Source: an uncultured Elusimicrobia bacterium
GTDB lineage: Bacteria > Elusimicrobiota > Elusimicrobia > UBA1565 > UBA9628
DNA length: 64,000 nucleotides
Assembly (NCBI GenBank): GCA_964537395.1
Contig: CAZIBN010000007.1
Coordinates: forward strand, 2,843-66,842
Direction of reading: 5' to 3'
In this document: positions 8,954 through 40,159 of the stretch, piece after piece
Layout of the letters: the number at the start of each line of letters is the position of its first letter
How positions within the stretch are numbered: the stretch's first letter is position 1
The notes under the pieces: generated by a model
The model's input: the letters and a program-made list of their open reading frames with translations, nothing else
Databases searched by the model: none
What the model was told of the DNA's origin: nothing
Program-made: the position numbers and the translations under genes

Positions 8954-9615
8954 GGCAGGGTGGCTTTGACGCGCGCCAGCTCGGCGAGGAAGTCGCCTTC
9001 CTTCAGCACGCGCGCGCAGATCCGGGCCCCGAGATCCTGGCCGGCGGCGACGTCGCTGGGGTGATGCACTCCGGCGATGACGCGAAGGTCGCCCGCGTCA
9101 CGGCCATGGGAGGCGAGTATGCCCGCGCGGTCCGGGAACAGGCGGCCCAGGACGCAGGCGTCGAAGACGCCGGCCGCGGCGTGGGTGCTCGGGTAGGACG
9201 TAGCGCCTCCCGGCTTCTCGATGCAGGGCTGCACGCGCGCGTCGGCGCTGTAAGGGCGCGGACGCGCGAACTTCTTTTTGTAGTAGCCGGAGACCTTGGA
9301 GAGGAATTTCGAGGCGGCGTTCACGAACGGCGCGACGGCGTCCGCTTCGGCCTTGGATAGGATGCCTGAGGCTCCGAACAGGGACTGGAAATCGGGTATC
9401 GCCTGCCCGGCGGCGAGCGCGCATTGCTCGGGCTTGCGCTCGGCCTGGAGCTTCAGCAGCTGCTCGTAGTCCCGGTCGGACTCGGGAGTGCCGGCGGCTG
9501 GAGGCGTCGCCATCGGGAAATCGGTCGACGGGATGTCCTGCCACGAGGCGGCGGCAGGCCCGGCGAGAAGGAGGGCTGAAAGGGCAAGGCGGGCGGGGAA
9601 GCACGCACGGTTCAT
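8950..9615 (-). CDS. secreted PAP2-family (class A acid) phosphatase
   Basis: Signal peptide. PAP2 motifs KKKFARPRP, YPSTHAA and GVHHPSDV. The stop overlaps the tsaC start. Confidence 0.8.
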   Translation of the reverse strand: MNRACFPARLALSALLLAGPAAASWQDIPSTDFPMATPPAAGTPESDRDYEQLLKLQAERKPEQCALAAGQAIPDFQSLFGASGILSKAEADAVAPFVNAASKFLSKVSGYYKKKFARPRPYSADARVQPCIEKPGGATSYPSTHAAAGVFDACVLGRLFPDRAGILASHGRDAGDLRVIAGVHHPSDVAAGQDLGARICARVLKEGDFLAELARVKATLP

Positions 9616-9621
9616 GGGTTC

Positions 9622-9705
9622 ATTATACCGCGCCGGCCCCGTCCGTCAAGGGCCCAAAACCGGGGCCCGGGCGGAGTTGACGGCGTGCATACGGGGGGGT
9701 ATACT
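9622..9705. promoter_or_regulatory. back-to-back divergent sigma70-like promoters driving leaderless PAP2 and PPK2 transcripts
   Basis: Plus strand: TTGACG (9677-82), 17-nt spacer, TATACT (9700-05), 6 nt, ATG at 9712. Minus strand: TTGACG (9649-44), 16-nt spacer, TATAAT (9627-22), 6 nt, ATG at 9615. Confidence 0.65.
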
Positions 9706-9711
9706 GCGCTC

Positions 9712-11181
9712 ATGTTCGAGAGCGCGGAAGTCGGCCGTTCGGTGGAGAAGAAGGAGTACGAGAAGCGCGTCGCGGTCCTGCGCACTCGCATTCTCAAGGC
9801 TCAGCAGGCCCTGGCCGTCACAAGCCTGCGGCTTGTCGTCGTCGTGGGCGGCGTCGAGGGCGGAGGCAAGACCGAGGTCGCGCGCCGCTTCCTCGATTGG
9901 ATGGATCCGCGCGGCCTGAGCGTCGAGGCCTACGGAGAGCCTTCCAACGAGGAGGACGAGCGGCCCGAGTACTGGCGCTACTGGCGCACCTTGCCCTCCG
10001 GTGGACGCGGGGCGGTGCTGGTGGGCTCGTGGTACACCCGGCCCATCGTTCGCCGCACCTTCAAGGAGATCGGCTCCGGCGACTTCGATCAGGCGCTCGA
10101 TCGGGCGATGGCCTTCGAGGCCATGCTGGTCCGCGAGCAGACCGTGCTGGTGAAGCTGTGGCTTCACCTGTCCAAGAAGGGCCAGAAGCGCCGCTTCAAG
10201 GAGCTCGAGTCCGACCGCGACACCGCGTGGCGCGTGACCAAGCAGGATTGGGAGTTCTCCAAGAAATACGACCGCTTCCGAGAGGTGTGCGAGAGGGCGC
10301 TGACCAAGACCAGCGTCGCCCACGCGCCGTGGACGGTGATCGAGGCGACCGACCACCGTCATCGCGATCTGGCCGCGGGCGAGGCGGTGCTGGCGGCGCT
10401 CGAGGCCGCGCTCAAGCCGTCCTCGGCGCCGGCCGCCAAGCCCGTGCCGGACCGCGCGAAGCCGCCGAAGATCTCGATCCTCAGCCGTCTCGACCTGACC
10501 CAGCGGCTCGAGGAGGAGGATTCGAAGAAATTCCAAAAACAGCAGACGCGCGTGGCGCTCCTGTCGCGGCGCCTGCGCAAGGAGGGGCGCTCCCTTATCT
10601 GCGCCTTCGAGGGCGTGGACGCCGCGGGCAAGGGCGGCGCCATCCGCCGGCTGCTCTCCGCCATCGATGTCCGTAATGCGCGGGTCATGGCCGTGGCCGC
10701 GCCCACGGACGAGGAGCGCGAGCACCCGTACCTGTGGCGGTTCTGGCGCAACCTTCCGCGCCTGGGTCGTGCCACGATCTACGACCGCAGCTGGTACGGA
10801 CGCGTGCTCGTCGAGCGCGTCGAGGGCTTTTGCCCGGCGGAGGATTGGAAGCGCGCCTACTCCGAGATCGTGGACTTCGAGTCCGAGCTGGCCGAGGCCG
10901 GGACCATCGTCTGCAAGTTCTGGCTGCAGATCTCGCCCGAGGAGCAGCTGAAGCGCTTCAAGGAACGGGTCAAGACCCCGTTCAAGCACTACAAGATCAC
11001 CGAGGACGATTGGCGCAACCGCGGCAAGTGGGACGCCTATCAGGCCGCGGCCGTCGACCTGATCGAGAAGACGAGCACGCCCGACGCGTCCTGGACGCTC
11101 ATCGAGGCCGAGGACAAGCGATGGGCGCGGTTGAAGGTCATGAAGACCGTGGCGGATCGTCTCGAGGAAGAGCTGGGTTGA
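9712..11181 (+). CDS. ppk2: two-domain polyphosphate kinase 2 (polyP:AMP phosphotransferase type)
   Basis: Tandem PPK2 domains with Walker-A-like GVEGGGKT and FEGVDAAGKGG. Conserved EYWRYWRTLP and YLWRFWRNLP follow each. Confidence 0.85.
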   Translation: MFESAEVGRSVEKKEYEKRVAVLRTRILKAQQALAVTSLRLVVVVGGVEGGGKTEVARRFLDWMDPRGLSVEAYGEPSNEEDERPEYWRYWRTLPSGGRGAVLVGSWYTRPIVRRTFKEIGSGDFDQALDRAMAFEAMLVREQTVLVKLWLHLSKKGQKRRFKELESDRDTAWRVTKQDWEFSKKYDRFREVCERALTKTSVAHAPWTVIEATDHRHRDLAAGEAVLAALEAALKPSSAPAAKPVPDRAKPPKISILSRLDLTQRLEEEDSKKFQKQQTRVALLSRRLRKEGRSLICAFEGVDAAGKGGAIRRLLSAIDVRNARVMAVAAPTDEEREHPYLWRFWRNLPRLGRATIYDRSWYGRVLVERVEGFCPAEDWKRAYSEIVDFESELAEAGTIVCKFWLQISPEEQLKRFKERVKTPFKHYKITEDDWRNRGKWDAYQAAAVDLIEKTSTPDASWTLIEAEDKRWARLKVMKTVADRLEEELG

Positions 11182-20780: not shown

Positions 20781-20942
20781 AGCTGGTCGGTGGTCCTCTA
20801 ATAGGATGCTAGGACCCCTCAGGCCTAATTAGGCGTAGGCCGTTTGTCTGGGCCCCGCTTACCCATCTGCACCAGTCCCTTTCCCGGAAGTTCCTCTATA
20901 ATTCAGCAACGCCGCAGGTCGTTCTATTTAGAGGAGCCGATA

Positions 20943-23900
20943 ATGATCATCGAGAGAACCGTCGCGAAGAAGTCCCTGGCCGTGACCCTGGCCCTGGCCC
21001 TTTTCGCTTCCGCGCCGATGAGCGCCTGGTCTCAGACCCAGTCCGCAGCGGCCCGCGCGGGAAATAGCGCCGGAATCATCGGCGCCGTTGGCACGATGGG
21101 CACCATGACCCCGAATATGTCGGCGGTAATGGCTCCGGTGACGCTCCCTAGCCTTTCTCTGAACTCTCCGGCCCTCGTAGTCGCCCCCGCGGTGAAGGCG
21201 ATGGCCGCGGCCCCGATCGCTTCGGCGCAGGCGATGCCTGCCGCGGCCATGCCCCTCGCCGTCGAGGCGCACCCGGTGATCGGCCTCATCAACGCTTTGC
21301 AGGCCAAGGGCATCGTTCTGCCCGAGACGATGTCTTCGCGTGAGGACGCAGCTAAACTGATCGTCGCGGCCCAGGCCATGCCCGAGGGCTCGGCCAAGCA
21401 GAACATGATCACGATGGCCGCCGCCATCAACGCCGCGAACAGCTCCGGCTCTTCTGCCGAGCTGGGCAAGATCTGGGACGCCGAGAAGGCTCGCGCCGAA
21501 GCTCCCGAAGCGGCGCCCGTCCAGGCCGGCGGCTGGCGCTCGGTCGTTACGCGCCTGCTCCCCGCTCCGCTCGCGAAGATGGTCGCGAAGAAAGCCTCTG
21601 ACCCTGTTTCGCCGGCGAAGCCGGCAGATCCTGAGGACTACGCGGTGAAGATCGCGGACCTGCACTACGCGCCCTCGGTCGCGCAGCTCCCGGAGAACAC
21701 CTCCGCTATCCCCGTGTCGGACAACCAGGTCGTGGGCCAGGACGCCGCTCTGAAGGCGATCCGGTTCGGCCTGCAGATGCCCGGCCGCCACTACAACCTC
21801 TTCGTCGCCGGCCCGGACGGCTCCGGCCGCGAGACGGCCCTGCGCCACATGCTCCCCGACGTGGCCGCGAAGATGGCGACCCCCGGCGACCGCGTCGCCG
21901 TGACGAATTTCAAGGACAAGGAAAATCCGCTCGTGCTCGAGCTCGCGACGGGCCGCGCCCCGGCGTTCGTGAAGGGCGTGCGCAATTTCGTGGCGACGCT
22001 CAAGTCCTATCTGCCTCAGGTCCTCGGATCGGGCAAGATCGGCGAAGCAAAGAAGCAGATCGTCGCGCAGATCCAGGAAGCCGGTGCTCAGCGCGAGGAG
22101 GCTTTCCAGGCCGAGGTCAAGGCGATCACGCTCGCCGGCGGCCTTTTCACCGTCGAGTTCTTCGCGAAGCCTTCCGGCGAGGGCCGCATGATGGTCGGCC
22201 TCAAGCTCATGCGCAATGGCCAGGCCGTCGATCCCGCCAACATGGACGCGGACATCGCCGCCGGGGCCTACACCCGCGAGCAGATCGAAGCGGCCATGAA
22301 GGAGCGGGACCAGAAATTCCCCGGCGTCATGGAGAAGTTCAAGGCCATGATGGAGCAGAACAACAAGGAGATGGAGGCCGCCCAGGAGCAGATCGGCAAG
22401 ATGGAGACGCAGGCCGTCGCTTCCATCATCAACCAGGCCGGCGCGCCGCTGATGGAGGCGGTCATGCCTGAGGCCAAGGCGACCCCCGAGATGGCCGCGC
22501 TGCAGGCGAAGATCGATGCGTGGTCCGCCGATTTCGAGGCGCGCGTCTCCGCCGTCAACGTCGACGGCTTCGGCATCGCCTTCATCCAGAACGGCAGCAA
22601 GCTCCAGGTCGCCTACACGCACGGCGGCGAGGCTCTGAGCCAGCAGAAGGTCGAAGCGCTCATGAAGGCCGGCCTGACCCCGGCCAAGTTCAAGCAGATC
22701 CAGGAAGCTCTCGGCGCGGCCGTCGAGCCCCTGCTCACCGAGTTCAAGGCGAAGAACCAGGAGTTCGGCGCCGCGCAGCAGGCGCTGGCCAAGAGCCAGC
22801 CCAAGACAACCGCCACGCCGGAGCAGCTCAAGGCCGCCTCCTACGTGAAGGCGCTGATGAACTTCTCGGCGTCCAACTACCAGATCTTCATGGGCAAGAT
22901 CGCCACGCCGGCCGATGAGGACGGCGAGGAAGGGATCAAGGACGCCCCCGGGCAGAAGGCGATGGACGCCCAGGACTTCTTCGAGGCCAGCGTCCTCTCC
23001 AGCAACGGCGGCAAGACGGGCGCCCCGGTGGTCTGGGTCAAGAATCCGTCCCTCGACAAGGTCTTCGGCAAGGCCGACGACAACAAGCGCACGATGATCA
23101 TCCCGGGCGTGGGCCTCGTCAAGGGCGGCGCCCCGGGCGGCCCGACCTTGATCGGCGGCGCGATCCAGCAGGCCGAGGGCGGCTTCCTCGTGCTCGATTT
23201 CATGGACGTGCTGCGCGCTCCGGGCCTGTACCAGGCGTTGATGGCCGCCGTGAAGACCGGCGACGCGTCGATGGTCGAGGGCGGAATCCAGGGCCTGATG
23301 AACGGCAAGGGCGAGGCGTATCACGTCCCGAGCAAGGTCAAGGTCGTGCTGATCGGCTCTCCGAGCCTGCGCATGATGGTGGAGCGCCAGGACCAGGACT
23401 TCGCGATGAACTTTCAGGCGTCCGCCGACTTCCAGTCCACGCTCAAGGTCGGCGAGGAGTCGGTGGCCGGCTACGTGCAGTTCTTCAAGAAGGCCGTGCT
23501 GACGCTCGCCCGAGAGCTCAAGCAGGACGCGACGAACCTGACGCAGGACGCGATGAGCGCCCTCGTCGAGCAGGGCGCGCGCATGGCCGACTCCAATAAG
23601 AAGCTGACCGCGCAGTTTGGCGCGCTGTACAGCGTCGTCCGCGAGGCCACCTATTGGGCGCACGAGGCGGGCCGCAACGAGGTCCGCCGTGAGGACGTGG
23701 ACACCGCGATGCAGACCAAGCAGGATCGCGAGGAGGTCTATCGCCAGCACATGCTTCAGACCTATAAGGACAACGTGTTCGTCGTGGAGACGACCGGCAA
23801 GAAGGTCGGCCAGATCAACGGCCTGGCCGTCATGGGCACCTTCGGCGTGCCGATGCGCATCACCGTGGTGCCTTCCGCCGCGGCGGGCATGGGCGGGATC

Positions 23901-24458
23901 ATCTCGGTGGACCGCAACGCCGGCCCGAACCAGACCGGCTCGTCCTTCAACAAGGCGCTGGGCATCGTCGAGGGCTTCCTCCAGAACCTGTTCGCGCAGA
24001 AGCGGCCGTTTCCGGCGCGCCTCTCGATTTCCTATGAACAGAACTACGGCGGCATCGACGGCGACTCGGCGACCTCGACGGAGATCTACTCGATCCTGTC
24101 GGCGCTCTCGGGTGTTCCGATCGGCCAGAACTTCGCCGTGACCGGCTCGGCCGACCAGTTCGGCAACGTGCAGGCTATCGGCGGCGTGAACCACAAGATC
24201 GAGGGCTTCTACGAGCTCGCGAAGGCTCGCGGCCTGACGGGCGATCAGGGCATCGTGATCCCGCAGGCGAACGTGGCTGACCTCCAGCTCTCGCTCGAGG
24301 TGGTGGAGGCCGTGAAGGCCGGCAAGTTCCACATCTACGCCGTCAGCCACGTCAGCCAGGGCCTCGAGATCCTGACCGGCGTCGCCTACTCGGAGATCCT
24401 CGCCAAGTCGCGCGCGAACCTGGCGCAGATGGGCAAGCCGGAAGCCAAGAAGAACTGA
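20943..24458 (+). CDS. Lon-like protease (COG1067/LonC-like AAA-like module + Lon_C proteolytic domain), 1171 aa, with N-terminal signal peptide and Ala/Met-rich extension
   Basis: GAGGAG SD 6 nt before the ATG. Signal-like MIIERTVAKKSLAVTLALALFASAPMSAWSQ. AAA-like segment NLFVAGPDGSGRETALRHML, a degenerate Walker A with R in place of K. Lon_C Ser-Lys dyad region GGIDGDSATSTEIYSILSAL...GGVNHKIEG. Confidence 0.7.
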   Translation: MIIERTVAKKSLAVTLALALFASAPMSAWSQTQSAAARAGNSAGIIGAVGTMGTMTPNMSAVMAPVTLPSLSLNSPALVVAPAVKAMAAAPIASAQAMPAAAMPLAVEAHPVIGLINALQAKGIVLPETMSSREDAAKLIVAAQAMPEGSAKQNMITMAAAINAANSSGSSAELGKIWDAEKARAEAPEAAPVQAGGWRSVVTRLLPAPLAKMVAKKASDPVSPAKPADPEDYAVKIADLHYAPSVAQLPENTSAIPVSDNQVVGQDAALKAIRFGLQMPGRHYNLFVAGPDGSGRETALRHMLPDVAAKMATPGDRVAVTNFKDKENPLVLELATGRAPAFVKGVRNFVATLKSYLPQVLGSGKIGEAKKQIVAQIQEAGAQREEAFQAEVKAITLAGGLFTVEFFAKPSGEGRMMVGLKLMRNGQAVDPANMDADIAAGAYTREQIEAAMKERDQKFPGVMEKFKAMMEQNNKEMEAAQEQIGKMETQAVASIINQAGAPLMEAVMPEAKATPEMAALQAKIDAWSADFEARVSAVNVDGFGIAFIQNGSKLQVAYTHGGEALSQQKVEALMKAGLTPAKFKQIQEALGAAVEPLLTEFKAKNQEFGAAQQALAKSQPKTTATPEQLKAASYVKALMNFSASNYQIFMGKIATPADEDGEEGIKDAPGQKAMDAQDFFEASVLSSNGGKTGAPVVWVKNPSLDKVFGKADDNKRTMIIPGVGLVKGGAPGGPTLIGGAIQQAEGGFLVLDFMDVLRAPGLYQALMAAVKTGDASMVEGGIQGLMNGKGEAYHVPSKVKVVLIGSPSLRMMVERQDQDFAMNFQASADFQSTLKVGEESVAGYVQFFKKAVLTLARELKQDATNLTQDAMSALVEQGARMADSNKKLTAQFGALYSVVREATYWAHEAGRNEVRREDVDTAMQTKQDREEVYRQHMLQTYKDNVFVVETTGKKVGQINGLAVMGTFGVPMRITVVPSAAAGMGGIISVDRNAGPNQTGSSFNKALGIVEGFLQNLFAQKRPFPARLSISYEQNYGGIDGDSATSTEIYSILSALSGVPIGQNFAVTGSADQFGNVQAIGGVNHKIEGFYELAKARGLTGDQGIVIPQANVADLQLSLEVVEAVKAGKFHIYAVSHVSQGLEILTGVAYSEILAKSRANLAQMGKPEAKKN

Positions 24459-28188: not shown

Positions 28189-29103
28189 TCAGGCGTTCGG
28201 ATTCGACGGCGGGGCGTCGACGCGCGCGGCGATCATCTGCCGGAGCATGTCAGAGCCGGGAGGGACCATGGTGATCTGCGCGCCGCTCTCGAGCACGCGC
28301 TGGACCTCCAGGATCTCGAACATGGCCTGAAGTATGTCGGGCGCCGAGGAGATCTCCTTCAGGGCGTTGCCGACGATCTTGGGGCGCAGGGCCGCGGCCT
28401 CGCCGAAGGCGATGGACGCCTGGCGCTGGGCGGTGCTGGCGATGATGTTGACCTGGTTCTCGCCGTCTTGCTTGATCGACGAGGTCACCTGGCGTAGGCG
28501 GTTCACCACCTTCTCCTCGATCTGCTTGATCATGCGCGGATCGCGCAGGTGGACCTTACGGATGTAGACGGAGCCGAGCTTGTAGCCCCATTCGTGGGAC
28601 TTCGGCGACACTTCCTCTCGCACGACCTGGCTCATCTGGTGTCGCGAGCCGAGCATGGCCGCGAGCTTCATGTTCGACAGCGAGCGCACCGTGGCGTTGC
28701 TGACGTTGGCCGCGAGCGAGCCTCTCGGGTCGGCGTTCTTGAACAGGAAGGCGACCGGATCGGAGACGTACATCTCGTACCAGATGCCGATGCCCATCGG
28801 CGCGCCTTCCTCGGAGTTGACGGGCTCGGAGCGGCGATAGACCTGGTCCATGCGCATGTCGAGCGTGTAGCATGTGCCGATCCAGTTGACGATGAGCGCG
28901 GCGGGCCCTATCTTCAGCCACAGGAAGTGGATTCCGGGCTCGGTGATCGTCTCAAGGACGTTGCCGAACAGCACGAAGACCTTCGAGGTGCCCTCGTGGA
29001 CGATCGTGTAGAACCCGAGCATGCGCAGAAAGCCGAGCAGCACGGGAACAAGGATGAAAAGACCGAAGAACGTCACGCCTGCGGCGAGCGTAAAGGGGTT
29101 CAT
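28189..29103 (-). CDS. SPFH/band-7 (stomatin/HflC-like) membrane protein
   Basis: N-terminal TM followed by an SPFH domain. Confidence 0.75.
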   Translation of the reverse strand: MNPFTLAAGVTFFGLFILVPVLLGFLRMLGFYTIVHEGTSKVFVLFGNVLETITEPGIHFLWLKIGPAALIVNWIGTCYTLDMRMDQVYRRSEPVNSEEGAPMGIGIWYEMYVSDPVAFLFKNADPRGSLAANVSNATVRSLSNMKLAAMLGSRHQMSQVVREEVSPKSHEWGYKLGSVYIRKVHLRDPRMIKQIEEKVVNRLRQVTSSIKQDGENQVNIIASTAQRQASIAFGEAAALRPKIVGNALKEISSAPDILQAMFEILEVQRVLESGAQITMVPPGSDMLRQMIAARVDAPPSNPNA

Positions 29104-29104
29104 G

Positions 29105-30115
29105 TTAACGGCCCTCCCAGTGCTGCCGGTTCTCGAGGACCAGCTGCTTCGTGTTTTTGAAGATGCCGAGGCGGACGTTGCGCAGGTACGCGATCAGCGA
29201 GCCGGAGCCGCCGATGGCCTTGAGGTCGGTGAGCTGCTTGGCGAGCGCCAGCAACGGCTCGACCTCGGCCTGGGCGTTGAGCGTCTCGAGCTCGACGGCG
29301 CGTTTGGACTGCACGATCTTCTGGTCCGCCGACGCCTGCGCCAGGCTGATCTCGGAGGAGACGTGGTTGTGGGCCGTATTGATGGCGGCAAGCGCCGAGT
29401 CGACCTCGGGGGGCGGGTCGATGCCGGTGATCAAGGACGCGTCGAGGATGATGCCGTAGCGGGCGGTCGAGGACTTGCAGTCCTGATCCATATCGTCGTT
29501 AAGGGAGCGCAGGTTCTTGCGGATATCGTTGATCGACACACCGCTGAGCTCGCTCAAGCCCGTGGCCTGGGAGTGTGAGGCGCCCTCGAGCTTCGGCGCC
29601 TCGAACGTCGCGATCTTCTCGCGCAGCACCGAGACGAAATAGCCCATCACATGGACGATCGGGTTCTTGATGCCGAACAGGTAGGCGTACAGGTTGCGCT
29701 CCGAGACGCGGAAGCGGATCTGGCCGGTGAGGCCGGTGTTGAGCTGGTCCATCGTGATCGCCTCGAGGACGGAGCCGCCCTTGTTGGCTCCCGGCGTCTC
29801 GGGGTCCGTCGCGATGTGGATGCTCTCGGTCGCGATCGAGACCTTGTAGACCTTCTCCCAGGGCCACTTGAAGTACGGGCCGCCGGGCGGGATGACGCGA
29901 AGCTGAGGGTAGTTGTAGCGCAGCTGCTCGTCGGCGCTGAGCGTCGCCTTGAGCTCGGGGTCGTCGAGGGTCTTCGTCCCCTCGAGGCGCTGGGCGCGCC
30001 CGAAGCTCGTCTTGACCGCCCGCTCGTTCTGGTCGACCGTGTACAGGCCGGCCACGAGATAGCTGAGCAGGAACCACGCCACGAATCCGAACGCCGCGCC
30101 TAATAGAAAGCCCAT
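29105..30115 (-). CDS. SPFH/band-7 (HflK-like) membrane protein, tandem paralogue
   Basis: N-terminal TM followed by an SPFH domain and a coiled coil. It lies 1 nt upstream of the second SPFH gene. Confidence 0.75.
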   Translation of the reverse strand: MGFLLGAAFGFVAWFLLSYLVAGLYTVDQNERAVKTSFGRAQRLEGTKTLDDPELKATLSADEQLRYNYPQLRVIPPGGPYFKWPWEKVYKVSIATESIHIATDPETPGANKGGSVLEAITMDQLNTGLTGQIRFRVSERNLYAYLFGIKNPIVHVMGYFVSVLREKIATFEAPKLEGASHSQATGLSELSGVSINDIRKNLRSLNDDMDQDCKSSTARYGIILDASLITGIDPPPEVDSALAAINTAHNHVSSEISLAQASADQKIVQSKRAVELETLNAQAEVEPLLALAKQLTDLKAIGGSGSLIAYLRNVRLGIFKNTKQLVLENRQHWEGR

Positions 30116-30242
30116 GGGTCTCCTTGAGCGACGCGCTATTCAATCAAATTGAGGACGCCCGCAAGGCGAGCGCTGTGACCAAAGCCCCCCTTGAGTTTTT
30201 ATGCAATCCGCCCTATCCTCGTATGGATTCAGGAGGCTTTTA

Positions 30243-30785
30243 ATGAAACTCACTTTGCTCATCCTCACCGTTTCGCTGTTTGCCGCGGCCCCGCTTCGCG
30301 CTGAAGACAAAGCCAAGGGCGGGCCTCCCGAAGAGACGCCCTCCGGAACCCAGCCCGCCATTCCGGGCGAGCGCCCCGCGATCCCCGGCGACAAAGCCAA
30401 GGGAGGTTCACCGGAGGAGACGCCTTCCGGCACCCAACCTGCCATCCCCGGTGAGCGTCCGGCGATTCCCGGCGACAAGGAGCACAAGGGCGAGCGGGGT
30501 GAGCGCCGCGGAGATAAGCGTGAGCGCCGCAAAGAGCACAAGGGCGAACGCCGCGAGGAACGCCAAGGCGAACGCCGTGAGGAGCGCCAGGGCGAACGCC
30601 GTGAGGAACGCCAGGGCGAACGCCGCGAGGAACGCCAGGGCGAACGCCGTGAGCGTCGCGATAATGGCGTCAGAGACCATGGCCAGGGCGAGGGGCGCGG
30701 AGGGCGCGGCCAGGGAGCGGAGCGCCGACAGAGCGGTTCGCAGCGACAGGGCGGCGGTCAGCGCCGAGGCGGTCGAGGCCGCTGA
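30243..30785 (+). CDS. secreted repeat protein (2 x 28-aa DKAKGGxPEETPSGTQPAIPGERPAIPG repeats, then 5 x ERREERQG)
   Basis: AGGAGG SD 6 nt before the ATG. Signal peptide MKLTLLILTVSLFAAAPLRA. Tandem DNA repeats of 84 bp and 24 bp. Confidence 0.7.
   Translation: MKLTLLILTVSLFAAAPLRAEDKAKGGPPEETPSGTQPAIPGERPAIPGDKAKGGSPEETPSGTQPAIPGERPAIPGDKEHKGERGERRGDKRERRKEHKGERREERQGERREERQGERREERQGERREERQGERRERRDNGVRDHGQGEGRGGRGQGAERRQSGSQRQGGGQRRGGRGR
30306..30654 (+). repeat. coding tandem repeats (2 x 84 bp, then 5 x 24 bp)
   Basis: 84-bp units at 30306-30389 and 30390-30473. They differ mostly at synonymous positions. 24-bp units GGCGAACGCCG(T/C)GAGGA(A/G)CGCCA(A/G) at 30541-30654. Confidence 0.8.
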
Positions 30786-30812
30786 CTTAAGCCATAGAGA
30801 AGCGTAGGCTCT

Positions 30813-31412
30813 CTATTTGTGGAACGTCAGGCTTTCGAGCGCCACGCCCGCGTCCAGGCCCAGGCCGACGGAGACGTGGGCCAGGCTGATCGCGGTCTTG
30901 TCTGTCATGTCGAGGCTGCTGCGCAGATAGCTGACGGCCGCACCCGCGATGAAGTGGTAGCTGCCCTGGATCGAGGTGAAGCGGTCCATCAGCTGGTCTG
31001 TGTTCCGGGCACCGTAGACGAGGATGGTGACACGGCTGGCGCTTGCGCCCACGTTGAAGCCGATGGACGGGGCGTGCCACGCGAGGGACTGCGCCTGCGC
31101 CGCGGTCTGGCCTTTGGCGAGGAGCTTGCCGGAGCCCTTGCGGTAGCCGATGATGAACGCTCCCTGAGCCTCCTTTCCGACGATGACGCCGGTAGGGCGT
31201 CCGTTCTGGGCGAATACCGACTCGACTACCTTGGCCATGTCCGAGGACATGTCTCCGCCGAGATCCGAGATCGCCTTGAGGACCTCCGCTGAGGTGAATG
31301 TGTCGTCCTTCGCGCTTTGCGTCGCGGCCGTCTCGGCGCAGAAGCCGCGGGAGGGGAGAAGAGCGAGGCCCAGCACCGCGACCGCAGTCAGCACGTTTCG
31401 GACGTTCATCAT
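30813..31412 (-). CDS. secreted hypothetical protein (199 aa)
   Basis: Signal peptide MMNVRNVLTAVAVLGLALLP. Gly-rich beta-type sequence; family not recognised. Confidence 0.5.
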   Translation of the reverse strand: MMNVRNVLTAVAVLGLALLPSRGFCAETAATQSAKDDTFTSAEVLKAISDLGGDMSSDMAKVVESVFAQNGRPTGVIVGKEAQGAFIIGYRKGSGKLLAKGQTAAQAQSLAWHAPSIGFNVGASASRVTILVYGARNTDQLMDRFTSIQGSYHFIAGAAVSYLRSSLDMTDKTAISLAHVSVGLGLDAGVALESLTFHK

Positions 31413-31530: not shown

Positions 31531-32670
31531 GTGATGCTGGCCATCTGGCACGGCCTTCTGCTTGGGCTCGTGCTGCTCTCCTGGGCGTATTGGATCATCG
31601 TGGCGATCACGGTGGCGATCTTCTTTGGGCGCAAGGCGCGTCCGGGGAAAGAGGGCTATCGGCCCTCGGTCTCGCTGATCAAGCCCGTGTGCGGCCTGGA
31701 GAAGAACCTCTACGAGAACCTTTCCAGCGCTTGCGCTCAGGACTATCCCGATTATGAGATCGTCTACGCGCTTCAGAATCCCGAGGATCCGGTCCTTCCG
31801 ATCCTCGAGCGCATCCGCGCCGAGAACCCGCAGCGCCGCGTGCGGATCGTGGTCGATCCCGCGGCCGCCGGGCCCAACGGCCGGCTCTGCAACATCCTCA
31901 ACGCCACCCGGCAGGCGACCGGCGAGGTGCTGGTCTATTCCGACAGCGACATGCTCCTGCCTCCGGACTATCTGCATGCGGTCACGGCGCCGCTGGCCGA
32001 CCCTGGGGTCGGCATCCATTGCACCCTCTACCGCGCGCACGGCGCCGTCAACCTCTGGGAGTCTCTCGAACTGCTGTCGCTCAACGCCGAGTTCGTGCCC
32101 TCGATGATCTTCGCGACCATGACCGGCGTGGCCCTGGCCTGCCCGGGCGCCTCTCAGGCCATCCGGCGCGAGACGCTCGATAAGATCGGGGGGCTTGAGC
32201 CGATGGCGGACAGCCTCGTCGAGGATCTTGAGCTCGGACGGCGGATCGTCGCCGCGGGCCTTCGGGTCGTGATCGGGCGTCATGTCGCCGGCACCGGCGT
32301 CGATCTCAGCGGCTGGCGTCCGTGGTGGCGGCATCAGGTCTACTGGGACCAGAATACGCGCGCCGCCTCCCCGGTCGGCTTCTTCTTCACCTGGCTCGTG
32401 CGCGGCGTGCCGCTGGTCGCGCTCTACTGCTCGACCCAGGGTTTGCTCGGGCTTGAGATCATGCTAGCGACCATCGGGGTGCGGCTGAGTTGCGCCGCGT
32501 CCTCCTGCCTTTTCCTTGGCGACCGTGAGGGCCTGCGCACGCTGTGGCTCCTGCCGCTGCGCGACCTCATCGGAGCGGCGACCTGGGCCGCCAGCTTTCT
32601 GCAAAGAGAGGTCCATTGGAAGGGGCGCGTGTTCGTGCTCTCCGGCAGCCGGCTCGTGGAAGCCGCGTGA
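31531..32670 (+). CDS. GT2-family glycosyltransferase (HpnI/FlmF2-like; lipid-linked hexosamine synthase candidate)
   Basis: N-terminal TM, then SLIKPVCGLEKNLYENL...DYEIVYALQNPEDP...YSDSDM (DXD region) and C-terminal TMs. The GTG start lies 6 nt after a TGGTATTCT extended -10. Confidence 0.65.
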   Translation: MMLAIWHGLLLGLVLLSWAYWIIVAITVAIFFGRKARPGKEGYRPSVSLIKPVCGLEKNLYENLSSACAQDYPDYEIVYALQNPEDPVLPILERIRAENPQRRVRIVVDPAAAGPNGRLCNILNATRQATGEVLVYSDSDMLLPPDYLHAVTAPLADPGVGIHCTLYRAHGAVNLWESLELLSLNAEFVPSMIFATMTGVALACPGASQAIRRETLDKIGGLEPMADSLVEDLELGRRIVAAGLRVVIGRHVAGTGVDLSGWRPWWRHQVYWDQNTRAASPVGFFFTWLVRGVPLVALYCSTQGLLGLEIMLATIGVRLSCAASSCLFLGDREGLRTLWLLPLRDLIGAATWAASFLQREVHWKGRVFVLSGSRLVEAA

Positions 32671-33512
32671 AGCAGGTCGTCGTCACGGCGGACGACTTCG
32701 GCCTCAGCCCCGAGGTCAACGAGGCGGTGATGCGCGGCCATGAGTTCGGGATCCTGAGCTGTGCGAGCCTCATGGTCGCCGCGCCGCAGGCGCACGCGGC
32801 CGCCGCCCTCGCGCGAGCGCGGCCCGGGCTCAAGGTTGGCCTTCACCTGACCCTCGCCGAGGGGAGGCCGATCCTCCCGGCGAACGAGGTGCCCGATCTC
32901 GTGGACGGCTCGGGACGCTTTCGCCCCGGGCTCGTCGGGCATGGGGCGCGCATCTTCCTATCGCCGCGCGCGCGCCGCCAGGCCGTCGCCGAGTGCCGGG
33001 CCCAGGTCGCGGCATTCCAGGCTCTGGGACTCGAGCTCGACCACCTTAACGGCCACAACCACTTTCATATCCACCCCACCATCCTGGGCGCCGTGCTTCA
33101 GATCGCCGCGAGCACGCGTATTCCTGCCGTGCGCGTGCCTTCCCAGCCGCTATCGACGATACCGCCGTCGGCGGTCTTGATGGCCGCCGTGATGGCGCCC
33201 TGGGTCGCCAGCACGCGTTCCCGGTTGAGGCGAGCGGGGATCGCCACGAACGACTGCCTCTTCGGTCTGTTCGAGACCGGCGCGATGGTCGAAAGCGCCT
33301 GGCTGCGGCTGATACCGCTCCTGCCCGACGGGCTCACCGAGATCTACTGCCACCCCGCGACGGCGACGGTCGGCCTGCTGCGGGAGACGATGCCCGATTA
33401 CCGGCACGCCGAGGAGCTCGCGGCGCTGACGAGCCCGCGCGTGCGCGAAGCCCTTGAGCGCTCGGGCGCGAGGCTGACCTCTTTCTCGCAGGCCTTCGCT
33501 CCCGCCGCATGA
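32667..33512 (+). CDS. YdjC-family carbohydrate deacetylase (HpnK/NaxD-like)
   Basis: N-terminus VKQVVVTADDFGLSPEVNEAV and HLNGHNHFHIHP match the YdjC/ChbG family. The GTG overlaps the GT2 stop (GTGA). Confidence 0.7.
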   Translation: MKQVVVTADDFGLSPEVNEAVMRGHEFGILSCASLMVAAPQAHAAAALARARPGLKVGLHLTLAEGRPILPANEVPDLVDGSGRFRPGLVGHGARIFLSPRARRQAVAECRAQVAAFQALGLELDHLNGHNHFHIHPTILGAVLQIAASTRIPAVRVPSQPLSTIPPSAVLMAAVMAPWVASTRSRLRRAGIATNDCLFGLFETGAMVESAWLRLIPLLPDGLTEIYCHPATATVGLLRETMPDYRHAEELAALTSPRVREALERSGARLTSFSQAFAPAA

Positions 33513-33892
33513 TCGCGACGACCCTCGTCCTCGTCTTGTCGGTCCTCTTCTCCGCGTACGGCAACGTGCTCACGCGTCGCGGCATGACCGAGCTTGGCCC
33601 TCTCGAGGACTTCCGTCCGCGACATCTTCTGCGCTACGGCTGGGCGGCTGTACGCAACCGGCACGTGCTGGCCGGGGTGGCCATCAACTTCGGGCAGTTC
33701 CTGGCCTGGCTCGTCGTGCTGTCCTGGGCGGAGCTGAGCTGGGCGCTGCCGATGAACGCGATCGAGTACATCTTCGTCGCGGCGCTGGCGTATAAGATGC
33801 TGGGCGAGCGTTTGGAGCCGCGCCGGCTCGCCGGGATCGGGATCATCGCCGTCGGCGTGTTCCTCACGATGTTCTCGTGGAAGGGGCCCTGA
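33509..33892 (+). CDS. 4-TM EamA/SMR-like small membrane protein (ArnE/ArnF-like flippase subunit candidate)
   Basis: 127 aa. The ATG overlaps the upstream stop (ATGA). Confidence 0.6.
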   Translation: MIATTLVLVLSVLFSAYGNVLTRRGMTELGPLEDFRPRHLLRYGWAAVRNRHVLAGVAINFGQFLAWLVVLSWAELSWALPMNAIEYIFVAALAYKMLGERLEPRRLAGIGIIAVGVFLTMFSWKGP

Positions 33893-34311
33893 TGCGGCGC
33901 GCGCTCGGCGTCGTCTTTCTCGCCACGATCTGCGGGTGCGCGGGCCATCTTTGCCTACGGGAAGGCATGATCGGCGTGGGGGCCCTGTCCGGCTCGTCCC
34001 CGGCCGCGCTGATCGCCTTTTTCGGGGCGGCGGCGTCCAGCCCCTGGATATGGCTCGGGATCGCGTTTGAGATCGCCTACTCGCTTCTTTGGCTCGCGGT
34101 CCTGTCCTGGTCCGAGATATCCTGGGCAGTGCCGATGAACGCGCTCGAGTATGTCCTGGCGGCCGCGGCGGCCTACGCCTTGCTTGGCGAGCCCATCGGG
34201 CCTCTACGCCTGGCGGGGATCGCTTTGATCTGCGTCGGCGTGGCGATGCTCAGCGGTTCGTGGGTTCAGGCCGGAACGGCGACCGACGCGTCCTTGACCC
34301 ACCGGATATAG
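33892..34311 (+). CDS. second 4-TM EamA/SMR-like protein (ArnE/ArnF-like partner)
   Basis: The ATG overlaps the upstream stop (TGATG). It is a paralogue of the 33509 gene. Its last 23 codons lie in direct-repeat copy A. Confidence 0.6.
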   Translation: MRRALGVVFLATICGCAGHLCLREGMIGVGALSGSSPAALIAFFGAAASSPWIWLGIAFEIAYSLLWLAVLSWSEISWAVPMNALEYVLAAAAAYALLGEPIGPLRLAGIALICVGVAMLSGSWVQAGTATDASLTHRI

Positions 34312-34323
34312 CTTTCGGAGCCC
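34243..34323. repeat. direct repeat copy A (81 bp)
   Basis: Matches 35092-35172 at 79 of 81 positions. Covers the last 23 codons of the second EamA-like gene plus 12 nt. Confidence 0.8.
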
Positions 34324-34375
34324 TCATGGTCACTGGTGTAAGGCGGGGCGGGCTGTTATACTCTAGGGACCTGAT

Positions 34376-34594
34376 ATGGGGAAAATCGCCCGAGTCGTTA
34401 AGATCGTTCCGCTTGAGCGCGATGAGGATGAAGCCTCTCTTGAGTACCGCGCGGGCTGTCTTGCGTTGTCTCCAGACGAACGGGTCGCTGAAATGCGCAG
34501 GTTGAGCCGGCGCATCATCTCGCTCAATCCTCGAAATCCGCGCTCTCCTCATATTGAACGGAGCATGGTGCGGGTAGTCCATGACGCCGTCTAA
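34376..34594 (+). CDS. small hypothetical protein (72 aa), possible antitoxin-like partner of the downstream nucleotidyltransferase
   Basis: TGTTATACT lies 13 nt upstream. Overlaps the next gene by 14 nt. No recognisable motif. Confidence 0.4.
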   Translation: MGKIARVVKIVPLERDEDEASLEYRAGCLALSPDERVAEMRRLSRRIISLNPRNPRSPHIERSMVRVVHDAV

Positions 34595-35045
34595 CGACGA
34601 GCCGTTGGACGATTACGAGGAGCTCATCTCGTGCCTCAACGTGCATGGCGTCGAGTATGTGATCATCGGGGCCTATGCCGTCGGCTTCCACGGCTATATC
34701 CGGGCCACCAGCGACATGGACATAGCTGTTGATCCTGCGCCGCCGAATGCCGTTAAGCTCGCGGCGGCCCTCAAGGATTTCGCCGGGGTCGAGATCGATC
34801 CGGCGGACATCAAAGAGAAAACGCTTCTCGAGCTTGGTCGGGATCCGAACAGCGTGGATATCATCACGACCATGAAAGGTTTGGCGTGGGAACGCGCATG
34901 GACGCTGCGGGTCGCCGGCCATGTCGGCAAGGCGCCCGCGTCGTTCCTCTCCAGGGAATGCCTCATCGAGAACAAGCTCGCGACCGGCCGTGAGCGCGAT
35001 TACCTCGACTTGAAGGGGATCGGCGCCGAGTTCAAAAAGCCCTGA
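34581..35045 (+). CDS. minimal nucleotidyltransferase-fold protein (pol-beta superfamily, MNT/AbiEii-like)
   Basis: NTase signature GAYAVGFHGYIRATSDMDIAV (hG[GS]x9-13 DhD). Confidence 0.55.
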   Translation: MTPSNDEPLDDYEELISCLNVHGVEYVIIGAYAVGFHGYIRATSDMDIAVDPAPPNAVKLAAALKDFAGVEIDPADIKEKTLLELGRDPNSVDIITTMKGLAWERAWTLRVAGHVGKAPASFLSRECLIENKLATGRERDYLDLKGIGAEFKKP

Positions 35046-35091
35046 TCAGTCGAGCCCGCCCCTGTTGCCATGAAGGGGCTTCTGCGGCGTC

Positions 35092-35172
35092 GCGATGCTC
35101 AGCGGCTCGTGGGTTCAGGCCGGAACGGCGACCGACGCGTCCTTGACCCACCGGATATAGCTCTCGGAGCCC
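35092..35172. repeat. direct repeat copy B (81 bp)
   Basis: Covers the last 19 codons of the epimerase gene (minus strand) plus 23 nt downstream. Confidence 0.8.
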
Positions 35173-36032
35173 GCGTCGAAGCCGACCGTCGGCTCCCAGC
35201 CGAGGAGCTTCTTGGCCTTCACGCCGCTGACGAGCTTGGCGTCGAGGTCGCCGCTGCGGGCCTCGATGTAGCGGATCTCGGCGTCGGGGAAGGACGCCTT
35301 GACCTTATCGGCGACCTGGCGGACCGAGACCTTCTCGATGCCTTCGAGGTTGATGATCTGGTTGGCGGCCTCGGGCTTGAGGGCGGCGACGTTGCCCAGG
35401 GCGAGGTCTTCCACGTAGACGAAGCGGCGCCACGCGCTGCCGTCGCCCTGGATCACGATGGGCTGCTTCTTGATCGCGCGCGCGACGAAGGTGGCGAGCA
35501 CGGTTCCCATGCGGGCGCGGGGCCCGTAGGGGATGCCGTAGCGCAGGATGGTCGTCTCGATGCCGTAGAGCTTCTGGTAGGCGACGCAGGCCATCTCGGC
35601 GGCGACCTTCGAGGCCGTGTAGACGTGGCCGACCTTGTTGATGGAGAGAGGGGTCTCCTCGTCGACTTCGGGCGCGTCGGTCATGCCGTACACCCAGGTC
35701 GTGCTGGCGAGGATGACGCGCTTGATGCCGGTGCGGCGCGCGGCCTCGAGCACGTGGGTCACCGCCATCACATTGGTGTTCATGCTCTCGACGGGGATGT
35801 GGTAGACGTCGTTGACGTTGGCGACGGCGGCGAGGATGTACACCGCGTCATAGCCGCCGGCCAGGGAGACGGTGGTGCGGCCCTGATCGGAGATGTCGGT
35901 GACGATGTGGCGGACGTCGCGCCGGTGGGGGGTCATGATGTCGAACACGGTGACCTCATGCCCCGCGTCGATGAGCTTGTCGACGACGTGCGAACCGATG
36001 AAACCTGAACCGCCGATGACTCCTACGCGCAT
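35115..36032 (-). CDS. NAD-dependent epimerase/dehydratase (SDR; UDP-sugar 4-epimerase or ArnA-C/UXS-like decarboxylase)
   Basis: Rossmann motif VIGGSGFIGSHVV and catalytic YTASK. Confidence 0.75.
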   Translation of the reverse strand: MRVGVIGGSGFIGSHVVDKLIDAGHEVTVFDIMTPHRRDVRHIVTDISDQGRTTVSLAGGYDAVYILAAVANVNDVYHIPVESMNTNVMAVTHVLEAARRTGIKRVILASTTWVYGMTDAPEVDEETPLSINKVGHVYTASKVAAEMACVAYQKLYGIETTILRYGIPYGPRARMGTVLATFVARAIKKQPIVIQGDGSAWRRFVYVEDLALGNVAALKPEAANQIINLEGIEKVSVRQVADKVKASFPDAEIRYIEARSGDLDAKLVSGVKAKKLLGWEPTVGFDAGSESYIRWVKDASVAVPA

Positions 36033-37162
36033 GATGCTGTCCTCTCCGCCTCAAGCGCTTGGCCCAGGGCTCCCACAACTTGATCGACCTCGGTGGTCGT
36101 CATTCCGGCGTAAACAGGCAGGCAGACGTGCCGCCCGCAGGCTTCGTCCGCACCCGGCAAAGCCTCGGTCGCGTACTTCGCGAACACGGGCTGGCGGTGG
36201 CAGGGCACCTCGTAGACTTCCCCGCTGAGGCTGACGCTGAACTTTTCCTTCATGGTCTTCTTGAAGCGCGCCCGGTCGATGCCCGGCTCGAGGCGCACGA
36301 TGTACTTGTAGAAGTTGGAGAGCGACCCGGCGGCCGGCAGCACCGGCGTGAGCCCCTTGAGCCCGACCAGCGCCTTAGTGTAGTGGTCGGCGGCGCGGCG
36401 GCGGTCGGCGAGGAACTCGGGCAGGCGCTTGAGCTGGGAGATGCCCACCGCGGCGTGAAGCTCGGAGAGGCGCCAGTTGTAGCCGAGGCGGACGTGGAAG
36501 TTGGTCGTGAAGCCTTCCTTGCCCTGGTCGCGGTACTGGAGCGCTTCCTTGTAGATGCGCTCGTCGTCGGTCACGATCATCCCGCCTTCGCCCGAGGTCA
36601 TGACCTTGGTCGGGTAGAAGGAGAACGACGCGGCGATGCCGAAGGTGCCCGCGGATTTCCCGCCGAGGGTGCTGCCGTGCGCGTGCGCGGCGTCCTCGAG
36701 GAAGAAAAGGCCCTTCTCCTTGCAGAAGGCCGCGATGGCGGGCGTTTCCGGGCTCACGATGCCGCCGATATGGACGATGACCACGCCGGCCGTCTTGGGC
36801 GTGAGCGCGCGGCGCACGGTCTCAAGGCTCAGCGCGAACGTCGAGGGATCCACATCGGCGAAGCGGACCGTTCCGCCGGCATGCAGCACCGCGGCCGGGG
36901 TCGCGAAAAAGGTGTTCGAGGGGACGATGACTTCCTTGCCTTCGACGCCGAGCACGCGCAGGGGGATCTCGAGGGCCGAGGTGCCGCTGTTGACCGCGAT
37001 CGCGTACTTCGAGCCGGTCAGAGCCGCAAACCCCTGCTCGAACTGCTTGGTCAGAGGCCCGAGCGTCAAAGCTCCCGTGCGCAGGGATTCGTCGATGAGC
37101 GCCAGGATCTCTTTGCGGTCGGCTTCGGGGATCACGATCTTCGCGGCGGGAATGTTGGGCAT
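36023..37162 (-). CDS. DegT/DnrJ/EryC1-family PLP-dependent sugar aminotransferase (ArnB-like)
   Basis: AVNSGTSALE...SFSFYPTKVMTSGEGGMIVT (PLP lysine region). SD GGAGAG precedes the start. The 3' end overlaps the epimerase start by 10 nt. Confidence 0.8.
   Translation of the reverse strand: MPNIPAAKIVIPEADRKEILALIDESLRTGALTLGPLTKQFEQGFAALTGSKYAIAVNSGTSALEIPLRVLGVEGKEVIVPSNTFFATPAAVLHAGGTVRFADVDPSTFALSLETVRRALTPKTAGVVIVHIGGIVSPETPAIAAFCKEKGLFFLEDAAHAHGSTLGGKSAGTFGIAASFSFYPTKVMTSGEGGMIVTDDERIYKEALQYRDQGKEGFTTNFHVRLGYNWRLSELHAAVGISQLKRLPEFLADRRRAADHYTKALVGLKGLTPVLPAAGSLSNFYKYIVRLEPGIDRARFKKTMKEKFSVSLSGEVYEVPCHRQPVFAKYATEALPGADEACGRHVCLPVYAGMTTTEVDQVVGALGQALEAERTASCA

Positions 37163-38276: not shown

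Positions 38277-38280
<4 letters not shown>
37888..38280 (-). CDS. DUF2203-like small protein
   Basis: N-terminus MKYFTAEEADALIP is typical of DUF2203. Family assignment is tentative. Confidence 0.4.
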
Positions 38281-39760
<1,480 letters not shown>

Positions 39761-39764
<4 letters not shown>

Positions 39765-40159
39765 GGGGCCTTAATGGTATCCAAATTGCGGCCCGGCATG
39801 TGCTTTCCCGCCGAGCGCGCGTGCGCGCGCGCCTTTCGGCGGCGCAGGCGCTCCATCTCCTGGAGCCGCTCGGAGGTCTCGGGAGAGATCTTCATCTCGA
39901 TCTGATCCACGAGCTCGCGCAGGGCGAGGAAGCGGTTGAGGCTGCGCTTGCGCTCTCGCTGGCAGGCCACGCGGATGTCGAGGGGAGGATAGCTCAATTG
40001 GACGCGGTTGGAGGTCTTGTTGACCTTCTGGCCGCCTTTGCCGCCCCCGCGCGAGAAGGACTCCTCGACGAGAGCGAGGCTGATCTTCAGCCGGACGATG
40101 CGAGCTTTGAGGTCCTCGAGCTTGGACGCAGCGACGCCGAAGTCCTCGTTGAGCTGCAC
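39761..40159 (-). CDS. arfB: ArfB/ICT1-like peptidyl-tRNA hydrolase (ribosome rescue factor)
   Basis: GGQ motif SRGGGKGGQKVNKTSNRVQL and a basic C-terminal tail. Confidence 0.7.

Follow-up and report, generated by a model that had tools for sequence, protein, structure and literature searches.

An HpnI-HpnK-type gene module with aminotransferase, SDR and EamA genes in an uncultured Elusimicrobia bacterium, and its probable role in hopanoid glycosylation

Which membrane lipid receives an amino sugar when the genes for the task resemble two pathways at once? The question is raised by a gene module at positions 31531-37162 of a 64-kb stretch of DNA from an uncultured Elusimicrobia bacterium (this whole stretch is referred to as the window). 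The module encodes a membrane glycosyltransferase (GT), a YdjC-family deacetylase, two small EamA-family membrane proteins, an extended SDR protein and a DegT-family sugar aminotransferase. A preliminary description had read it as a variant of the Arn pathway for 4-amino-4-deoxyarabinose (Ara4N), building an undecaprenyl-phosphate-linked (Und-P-linked) amino sugar for modification of lipid A or another part of the envelope. The genes themselves had been recognized correctly: all five gene types are present, the end points coincide with gene boundaries, and Pfam confirms each named domain (Glyco_transf_21, 120.5 bits; YdjC, 240.5; EamA, 33.4 and 26.7 against a cut-off of 28.2; Epimerase, 165.2; DegT, 354.7). 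Our comparison with related loci (L-numbers below) points to a different lipid: the module probably puts an amino sugar on a hopanoid, bacteriohopanetetrol (BHT), giving a glucosamine-type head group without the enzyme HpnJ, and flips the product across the inner membrane.

The HpnI-HpnK-HpnJ pathway is known from Burkholderia cenocepacia (Schmerk et al. 2015, as summarised in PMC12583986). The three enzymes successively yield BHT-N-acetylglucosamine (BHT-GlcNAc), BHT-glucosamine (BHT-GlcN) and BHT cyclitol ether, and an alphaproteobacterium with hpnI and hpnK but without hpnJ has 100% BHT-glucosamine (PMC12583986). Matches to the HpnI TIGRFAM model are confined to genomes with SHC and HpnH (bioRxiv 10.1101/2025.07.29.667474).

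The glycosyltransferase and the deacetylase

The GT (31531-32670, plus strand, 379 aa) has an N-terminal transmembrane (TM) helix and C-terminal TM helices. Scored against NCBIfam TIGR03472 (HpnI), it reaches 309.1 bits, with a cut-off of 310. Other members of the same clade score 323.3 (L022), 324.0 (L026), 306.3 (L021), 304.5 (L010) and 298.0 bits (L024), while the canonical HpnI of L015 scores 417.1. No ArnC-type NCBIfam model matched the GT at E≤0.01, and no ArnC, GtrB or DPM synthase structure matched it in the PDB at E≤1e-3. Ceramide glucosyltransferase is its top PDB structure (1.9e-19), and the Joint Genome Institute (JGI) gives GT homologues that name too. Because of this best structure, and because ArnC, GtrB and DPM synthase gave no match, we assign the enzyme to the GT21 type, a class that glycosylates lipid hydroxyls. 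Judged by these comparisons the GT is HpnI-like, not a polyprenyl-phosphate GT of the ArnC/FlmF2 type, and its subclade is a divergent one with members on both sides of the HpnI cut-off.

The YdjC protein (32667-33512, plus strand, 281 aa, GTG start, without TM helix or signal peptide) classes clearly as a member of the HpnK family: it scores 333.9 bits on NCBIfam TIGR03473 (HpnK), against a cut-off of 232.6, and its gene adjoins that of the HpnI-like GT. It is 45-46% identical to the HpnK proteins of three alphaproteobacterial hpnI-hpnJ-hpnK loci (L014, L015, L018). Identity to the canonical counterpart is just ~28% for the GT clade but ~46% for HpnK. This pattern, a diverged GT beside a less diverged HpnK, fits a changed GT substrate and not a different pathway.

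The module in related loci

Synteny of these genes is conserved in over 20 independent loci, drawn from three phyla or more, and is much too consistent to be due to chance. The module was found again in Elusimicrobiota, Acidobacteriota and Deltaproteobacteria and on many contigs from soil or groundwater; the closest loci in the genome collection are from groundwater Elusimicrobiota metagenome-assembled genomes (MAGs), where amino acid identity is 57-85% in HpnK and reaches 96% in the SDR. MAGs with the module include GCA_016196755.1, GCA_041694815.1 and the assemblies of contigs JAHFCE010000029.1, JACQJQ010000166.1 and JACRDU010000072.1. In some of these relatives, hopanoid genes stand in the same run. 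A Vicinamibacteria MAG (L026) carries, on a single strand, SHC-HpnH-HpnA-HpnG-like-HpnI-HpnK-EamA-DegT-SDR. The scores in this run, each followed by its cut-off, are 654.4/431 bits for SHC, 348.5/225 for HpnH, 480.8/367.65 for HpnA, 324/310 for HpnI and 392.9/232.6 for HpnK, with the HpnG-like protein below its cut-off (116.5/187.1). The module proteins of L026 are 36-55% identical to those of the window, and the window GT is 47% identical to the HpnI inside this shc operon. In L062, SHC, HpnG and HpnA lie beside a GT that is 49% identical to the window GT. The operon of a Deltaproteobacteria MAG (L024), GT-YdjC-EamA-EamA-DegT-SDR-HpnA on one strand, ends in an HpnA that scores 432.7 bits against a cut-off of 367.65. 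In L021 the module is coupled to HpnJ (730/577.6), an HpnN-like transporter and an HpnL-like protein. The linkage to hpnJ and an HpnN-like gene in L021 and to hpnA in L024 points the same way, to hopanoids. The preliminary description had held that hopanoid core genes nearby would indicate an HpnIJK-type function instead of an Arn-type one; such genes do accompany the orthologous module in L026 and L062, and are absent from the 64 kb of the window.

HpnJ is present in, among others, the related loci L021, L027, L029, L048 and L054. In L021, L027 and L029 a di-iron-like open reading frame (ORF) and an HpnN-like gene lie downstream of the module. The full order, seen at 3124-18283 of L021 and also in L027 and L029, is radical SAM, ATP sulfurylase/APS kinase, HpnL-like, DegT, SDR, HpnI, HpnK, HpnJ, sulfotransferase, di-iron protein and HpnN-like, which suggests that clusters of this type make a sulfated composite hopanoid.

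The di-iron-like protein is soluble, ~280-300 aa long, with two EExxH motifs of the di-iron-carboxylate kind and no Pfam or NCBIfam match. It flanks the module in six Elusimicrobia loci, and the same protein (46-47% identity) lies inside two alphaproteobacterial hpnIJK loci, at 12491-13315 of L015 and 18075-18890 of L018. We regard it as a candidate hopanoid-modifying oxygenase or desaturase. Its gene was located in L022 (12957-13823, minus strand), L021 (14661-15566), L004, L006, L007, L019, L020, L027, L029, L046 and L101.

How tightly do the remaining genes belong to the GT and HpnK? The SDR is syntenic with the module in L002, L007, L008, L012, L021-L024, L026, L034, L043 and L053, and all module gene types are co-directional in L024, L026, L034, L043 and L053. 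Three loci (L002, L007, L008) have the arrangement of the window, GT-YdjC-EamA-EamA with a convergent SDR-DegT pair, and two more (L012, L023) have the convergent SDR alone. A single EamA gene followed by DegT, with or without an SDR, is found in L010, L011, L013, L026, L034, L037, L042, L043 and L053. In L021 and L029 the order is DegT-SDR-GT-YdjC-HpnJ; L028 stops at the GT and L027 begins at it, and the GTs of L021, L027 and L029 are 62-64% identical to that of the window.

To quantify these associations, we counted partners in loci with adequate flanks only, binned by the identity of their GT to the window GT. At ≥55% identity (9 loci), YdjC was found in 8, EamA in 7 (all as pairs), DegT in 6, SDR in 7 and HpnJ in 2. 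At 40-55% (13 loci), the counts were YdjC 11, EamA 10, DegT 9, SDR 6 and HpnJ 1. At 30-40% (15 loci), EamA was still present in 6, again always as pairs, and HpnJ in 5, with YdjC in 2, DegT in 1 and SDR in none. Finally, the 10 loci with a canonical-HpnI-like GT had YdjC in 2, HpnJ in 3, SDR in 1, and neither EamA nor DegT in any. As partners, DegT and the SDR are thus particular to this GT clade, and the small EamA proteins accompany HpnI-like GTs more broadly.

A few relatives lack parts of the set. In L022, GT-EamA-EamA occupies 8966-10907 with no YdjC gene in between. L003 (8505-9356) and L009 have a YdjC orthologue (83% and 57% identity) with neither a GT nor an EamA gene beside it; the one in L003 has an M28 peptidase gene next to it.

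Proposed pathway and rival explanations

The SDR (35115-36032, minus strand, 305 aa) is UXS/epimerase-like, and its best PDB match is human UDP-glucuronate decarboxylase (UXS; 1.4e-40). Closer inspection of its catalytic motif reveals a substitution: the window protein and all orthologues read STTWVYG in place of STSEVYG, so that Trp occupies the position of the catalytic Glu. By alignment, the protein retains YxxxK and the Arg of the xxRxFxYVxD nucleotide-sugar motif. The SDR thus has the extended-SDR fold. Classical 4,6-dehydratase or decarboxylase activity is improbable for it, and we rejected both a classical 4,6-dehydratase and a UXS/ArnA-type decarboxylase as assignments, with Trp in place of the acid/base residue. 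On the NCBIfam ArnA model it scores 39.2 bits against a cut-off of 777.

The DegT/DnrJ/EryC1 protein (36023-37162, minus strand, 379 aa) resembles pyridoxal-phosphate-dependent sugar C4-aminotransferases. Its best PDB match is perosamine synthase (4e-59), with ArnB structures at 1e-42. Its NCBIfam matches are all below cut-off (PseC 239.9 bits, LegC 203, ArnB 176.8 against a cut-off of 631), and the DesI model was matched as well. It is 52-58% identical to the DegT proteins within the L026, L024, L010 and L034 operons. In L010-type loci, which lack the SDR, a search for an oxidoreductase that might take its place was negative and turned up just a methyltransferase and YfhO-like membrane proteins. 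The latter are two ~808-aa membrane proteins at 13570-18416 of L010, 1 kb downstream of GT-YdjC-EamA-DegT; one has a sub-threshold YfhO (GT-C-like) match, the sole hint of a GT-C-type partner in any locus.

The two EamA/DMT proteins are small, with four TM helices each. EamA-1 (33509-33892, plus strand, 127 aa) is ArnE/F-like and a candidate flippase subunit; EamA-2 (33892-34311, plus strand) has 139 aa from the ATG at 33892 or 144 aa from a GTG at 33877. They are paralogous (~42% identity) and have invariant residues in common in the alignment. EamA-1 scores 29.3 bits on the NCBIfam ArnE model and 27.7 on ArnF, against cut-offs of 92 and 99 (E~1e-6), and EamA-2 scores 29.3 on ArnE; the family profile gives faint matches to SLC35B1, LicB and EmrE. 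The relationship to ArnE/F is, by these scores, at the level of the DMT/EamA superfamily only. A small EamA gene directly follows HpnK in most related loci. We considered whether the EamA pair might substitute for HpnJ and rejected the idea: both co-occur in L048, L054, L057, L059, L067, L079 and L085. In soil-metagenome loci (L057, L059, L067, L079 and L085, at about 7.6-12 kb in each; also L064, L078 and L091) a small EamA pair lies near an HpnI-like GT, either between HpnJ and a more distant GT of this kind (32-35% identity) or immediately upstream of it. Pairs of small EamA genes thus accompany HpnI-type genes generally, an association that has gone unremarked.

From these assignments we propose the following pathway. 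By analogy with known HpnI function, the HpnI-like GT would take an N-acetyl-hexosamine from its nucleotide-sugar donor and attach it to BHT at the terminal hydroxyl, on the cytoplasmic face, and HpnK would then remove the 2-N-acetyl group to leave a free amine; these two steps have good support. Since there is no HpnJ, the sugar would not be contracted to the cyclitol ether, and the end product would be a BHT-glucosamine-type glycoside. With lower confidence, we propose that DegT and the SDR add a second amino group. The route that we favour leads from UDP-GlcNAc through a UDP-4-keto to a UDP-4-amino derivative, which the divergent HpnI clade would take as donor; action of the SDR and DegT on the sugar once it is lipid-linked appears less likely. 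The nucleotide-sugar route is favoured because the SDR keeps the Arg motif, DegT resembles NDP-4-keto-sugar aminotransferases, and the GT has diverged while HpnK has not. Also with lower confidence, the EamA pair would act as a heterodimer of the ArnE/F kind and flip the cationic hopanoid glycoside into the leaflet facing the periplasm, from which it would be delivered to the outer membrane. Apart from the GT, with its TM helices, the other module enzymes have neither signal peptide nor TM helix and so must act in the cytoplasm. The glycolipid itself would be the end product, with no GT-C step needed. Support for the second amino function and for flipping by the EamA pair is moderate to low. 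The calculated [M+H]+ of BHT-GlcN is 708.5409; a 4-amino-4-deoxy product would have 707.5569 and a 4-amino-4,6-dideoxy product 691.5620. A fuller picture is possible, if rather doubtful: a composite hopanoid in which BHT carries a sugar with two amino groups (e.g. a 2,4-diamino-2,4-dideoxy- or 2,4-diamino-2,4,6-trideoxy-hexose), with the EamA pair as the first dedicated flippase for polar hopanoids.

Several observations weigh against assigning the module to hopanoids, or against parts of this pathway. We found no shc, hpnH, hpnG, hpnJ, hpnN or di-iron homologue in the window (tblastn at E≤1 with related-locus queries; NCBIfam and Pfam on essentially all large ORFs); HpnJ was likewise not found by tblastn at E≤1 with the HpnJ of L021 as query. 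In none of the Elusimicrobia loci did we find a hopanoid gene within 10 kb. Scanning the first 24 loci for SHC motifs (DxDDTA plus QW repeats) gave no match; SHC was located afterwards, in L026 and L062. The GT falls just below the HpnI cut-off and is divergent from the experimentally characterised HpnI. Known decarboxylases and dehydratases that form 4-keto products rely on a Glu/Asp that is missing from the SDR, and the equivalog scores of both the SDR and DegT are all under cut-off. L004, L019 and L020 have no DegT or SDR nearby, and L022 has no YdjC. The flippase role proposed for the EamA pair is read from fold-level similarity and gene linkage only.

Could the acceptor be some other hydroxylated lipid? 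In this Elusimicrobiota lineage an HpnI-like GT21 enzyme might glycosylate diacylglycerol, ceramide or another such lipid to give a cationic glucosaminyl glycolipid for the EamA pair to flip. GT21 includes ceramide glucosyltransferase, the best PDB match of the GT and the JGI label of its homologues, and bacterial diacylglycerol glycosyltransferases belong to the same family; the sub-threshold HpnI score, the ~28% identity to canonical HpnI and the lack of hopanoid genes in the 64 kb here, or within 10 kb in Elusimicrobia loci, would all suit this explanation. We nevertheless judge it unlikely: GTs of the same clade stand with shc and hpnH (L026), shc (L062), hpnA (L024) and hpnJ (L021, L027, L029), the di-iron gene of the Elusimicrobia loci occurs elsewhere in hpn loci, and HpnK is well over its cut-off. 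In addition, SHC and HpnCDE have been reported in Elusimicrobia (PMC7306690).

The carrier envisaged in the preliminary description is less probable still. There, the GT would make an Und-P-linked N-acetyl-aminosugar, a NaxD-like YdjC enzyme would deacetylate it, EamA proteins would flip it, and an ArnT/FlmK-type GT-C transferase encoded elsewhere would pass it to lipid A or another envelope polymer. YdjC deacetylases do act in such an Und-P-type role in the Francisella NaxD and Bordetella LgmC systems, and the weak ArnE/ArnF matches of EamA (E~1e-6), the similarity of DegT to ArnB structures, the match of the SDR to UXS as its nearest solved homologue (an enzyme of the same class as the C-terminal domain of ArnA) and the YfhO-like protein of L010 are all in keeping with it. 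However, the GT is of the GT21/HpnI type, with no match of the ArnC, GtrB or DPM1 type, and all Arn equivalog scores are far under cut-off. The catalytic Glu that UXS and ArnA share is missing from the SDR, no formyl- or acetyltransferase for an Ara4N-type protected intermediate was found, and orthologous modules are embedded in shc/hpnH, hpnJ or hpnA operons. As the preliminary description had stated, no terminal GT-C transferase is encoded in the window (none among its ORFs by NCBIfam and Pfam); nor is there one in the Pfam-annotated relatives L019-L026. Taken together, we consider this explanation very unlikely.

We give scarcely any credence to a split of the module in two, in which hpnI-hpnK-eamA-eamA would be one operon and SDR-DegT an unrelated neighbour making a nucleotide amino-sugar for a surface polysaccharide. 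In the window, as in most Elusimicrobia loci, the strand of SDR-DegT is indeed opposite to that of the other genes, and the four-gene unit occurs without SDR and DegT in L004, L019 and L020. Yet in ten loci (L010, L011, L013, L024, L026, L034, L037, L042, L043, L053) DegT forms a continuous, co-directional run with GT-YdjC-EamA, whether an SDR is present or not; in L021, L028 and L029 it comes upstream of them on one strand. The linkage spans at least three phyla, and DegT occurs in 0 of 10 canonical HpnI loci. It is because these co-directional operons are found in several phyla that independence of SDR-DegT is unlikely. Amino-sugar modification of a hopanoid by the whole module thus remains our preferred reading.

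Gene layout and place among known systems

The four plus-strand genes, GT-YdjC-EamA-1-EamA-2, are translationally coupled: start and stop codons read from the sequence overlap as GTGA (GT/YdjC), ATGA (YdjC/EamA-1) and TGATG (EamA-1/EamA-2). The SDR and DegT genes overlap each other by 10 nt on the minus strand and are convergent with the four. The preliminary description had treated all of these genes as a single cluster. Their grouping is indeed conserved; what it had missed is the opposite strand of SDR and DegT, and an inserted ORF of 154 aa. G+C content is 64-71% per 2-kb step across the window, mostly ~65%, and genes stand out clearly as frames with high G+C at third codon positions. A scan for promoters and terminators gave no signal above shuffled expectation.

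A repeat search found two copies of an 88-nt direct repeat, 97% identical and spaced 849 nt apart, flanking a 761-bp insertion that holds the 154-aa ORF (34581-35045, plus strand). Copy 1 (34236-34323) comprises the 3' end of EamA-2 and a duplicated SDR 3' end; copy 2 (35085-35172) comprises the 3' end of the SDR and a duplicated EamA-2 3' end. L002 and L007 have no insertion, and there the 3' ends of EamA-2 and the SDR overlap each other. The repeat is the duplicated ancestral tail-to-tail overlap, and both flanking genes therefore retain intact 3' ends. A target duplication of 88 nt is unusually long for an insertion without a recognisable transposase. The ORF has no Pfam match, only a weak MntA-type nucleotidyltransferase match in NCBIfam (18 bits), and is absent from all related loci by blastn and tblastn; we do not count it as a module member.

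Directly upstream of the GT and divergent from it, at 28189-31412 (minus strand), lie genes for two SPFH/Band-7 (flotillin-like) proteins and an EipA envelope-integrity protein, neighbours that are not kept beside the module in relatives. Farther upstream, a 1204-aa protein (20844-24458, plus strand) has a C-terminal Lon-protease-like region as its sole recognised part. On the other side, at 38277-40159 (minus strand), are a Ser/Thr kinase gene and then a fragment-sized, 132-aa release-factor/ArfB-like ORF, with a B. subtilis-type sdhCAB operon just downstream.

It is instructive to compare the module with the systems that it resembles. With the HpnI-HpnK-HpnJ pathway it has in common a GT21-type HpnI-like enzyme followed by an HpnK that passes its model, as well as orthologous modules in shc/hpnH/hpnA operons. 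It differs in its divergent GT subclade (298-324 bits, against about 417 for canonical HpnI), in the lack of HpnJ, whose absence predicts, by analogy with the hpnJ-less alphaproteobacterium, a glucosamine-type end product, and in the addition of DegT, a UXS-like SDR and one or two small EamA proteins, all absent from canonical loci. In the window it also stands away from the hopanoid core genes.

The likeness to Arn (PmrHFIJKLM) lies in the order of operations: SDR oxidation and DegT transamination, lipid loading by a membrane GT of the GT2 superfamily, N-acyl removal and a DMT pair with four TM helices. ArnE/F act after deformylation in the Arn pathway. The preliminary description was right about this logic, and right to name HpnI/HpnK as an analogue, but membership in the Arn family fails, with the Arn models missed. 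Unlike Arn, the module has a GT that is not of the ArnC type, a YdjC-type deacetylase instead of the NodB-type ArnD (no NodB-type ArnD deformylase domain was found in any cluster protein by NCBIfam and Pfam), no ArnT in the window and an SDR without the catalytic Glu, and its carrier lipid would be a hopanoid that is itself the end product. The lack of an ArnA formyltransferase domain, which had been noted before, holds in the same searches of the cluster proteins.

In Francisella (FlmF2/NaxD/FlmK) and Bordetella (LgmABCD), hexosamine is added to lipid A, and a YdjC deacetylase acts on the lipid-linked N-acetyl-hexosamine before translocation. These systems use an ArnC-like polyprenyl-phosphate GT together with a GT-C transferase; neither was found for the module in the window. 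With ceramide glucosyltransferase and bacterial GT21 enzymes, the likeness is direct glycosylation of a membrane-lipid hydroxyl, and the window GT has the Glyco_transf_21 domain. Here the difference is the linkage of the module to HpnK and of its relatives to hopanoid genes, which points to BHT and not to ceramide or diacylglycerol.

The core chemistry of HpnI and HpnK is already known; what is new is the DegT/SDR/EamA extension, with steps that are so far inferred. In the literature that we searched, we found no description of such a module or of an association of DegT, SDR or EamA genes with hpnI and hpnK, and no hpn gene function was named there for the crossing of the inner membrane by polar hopanoids before HpnN-type export. 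The EamA pair is a concrete candidate for hopanoid flipping. Automated labels such as 'ceramide glucosyltransferase', or Arn-like ones, are misleading for these genes.

Hopanoids are major bacterial membrane lipids that resemble sterols and serve as geochemical biomarkers, and the diversity of their polar head groups is only partly explained genetically. The module predicts an undescribed, nitrogen-rich bacteriohopanepolyol, to be sought in environmental liquid chromatography-mass spectrometry data, and extends the potential to make composite hopanoids to uncultured Elusimicrobiota and Vicinamibacteria. If the two-amino-sugar product were real, the module would represent an Arn-like 'cationic hopanoid' branch, widespread in uncultured Elusimicrobiota, Vicinamibacteria and Deltaproteobacteria of soil and groundwater.

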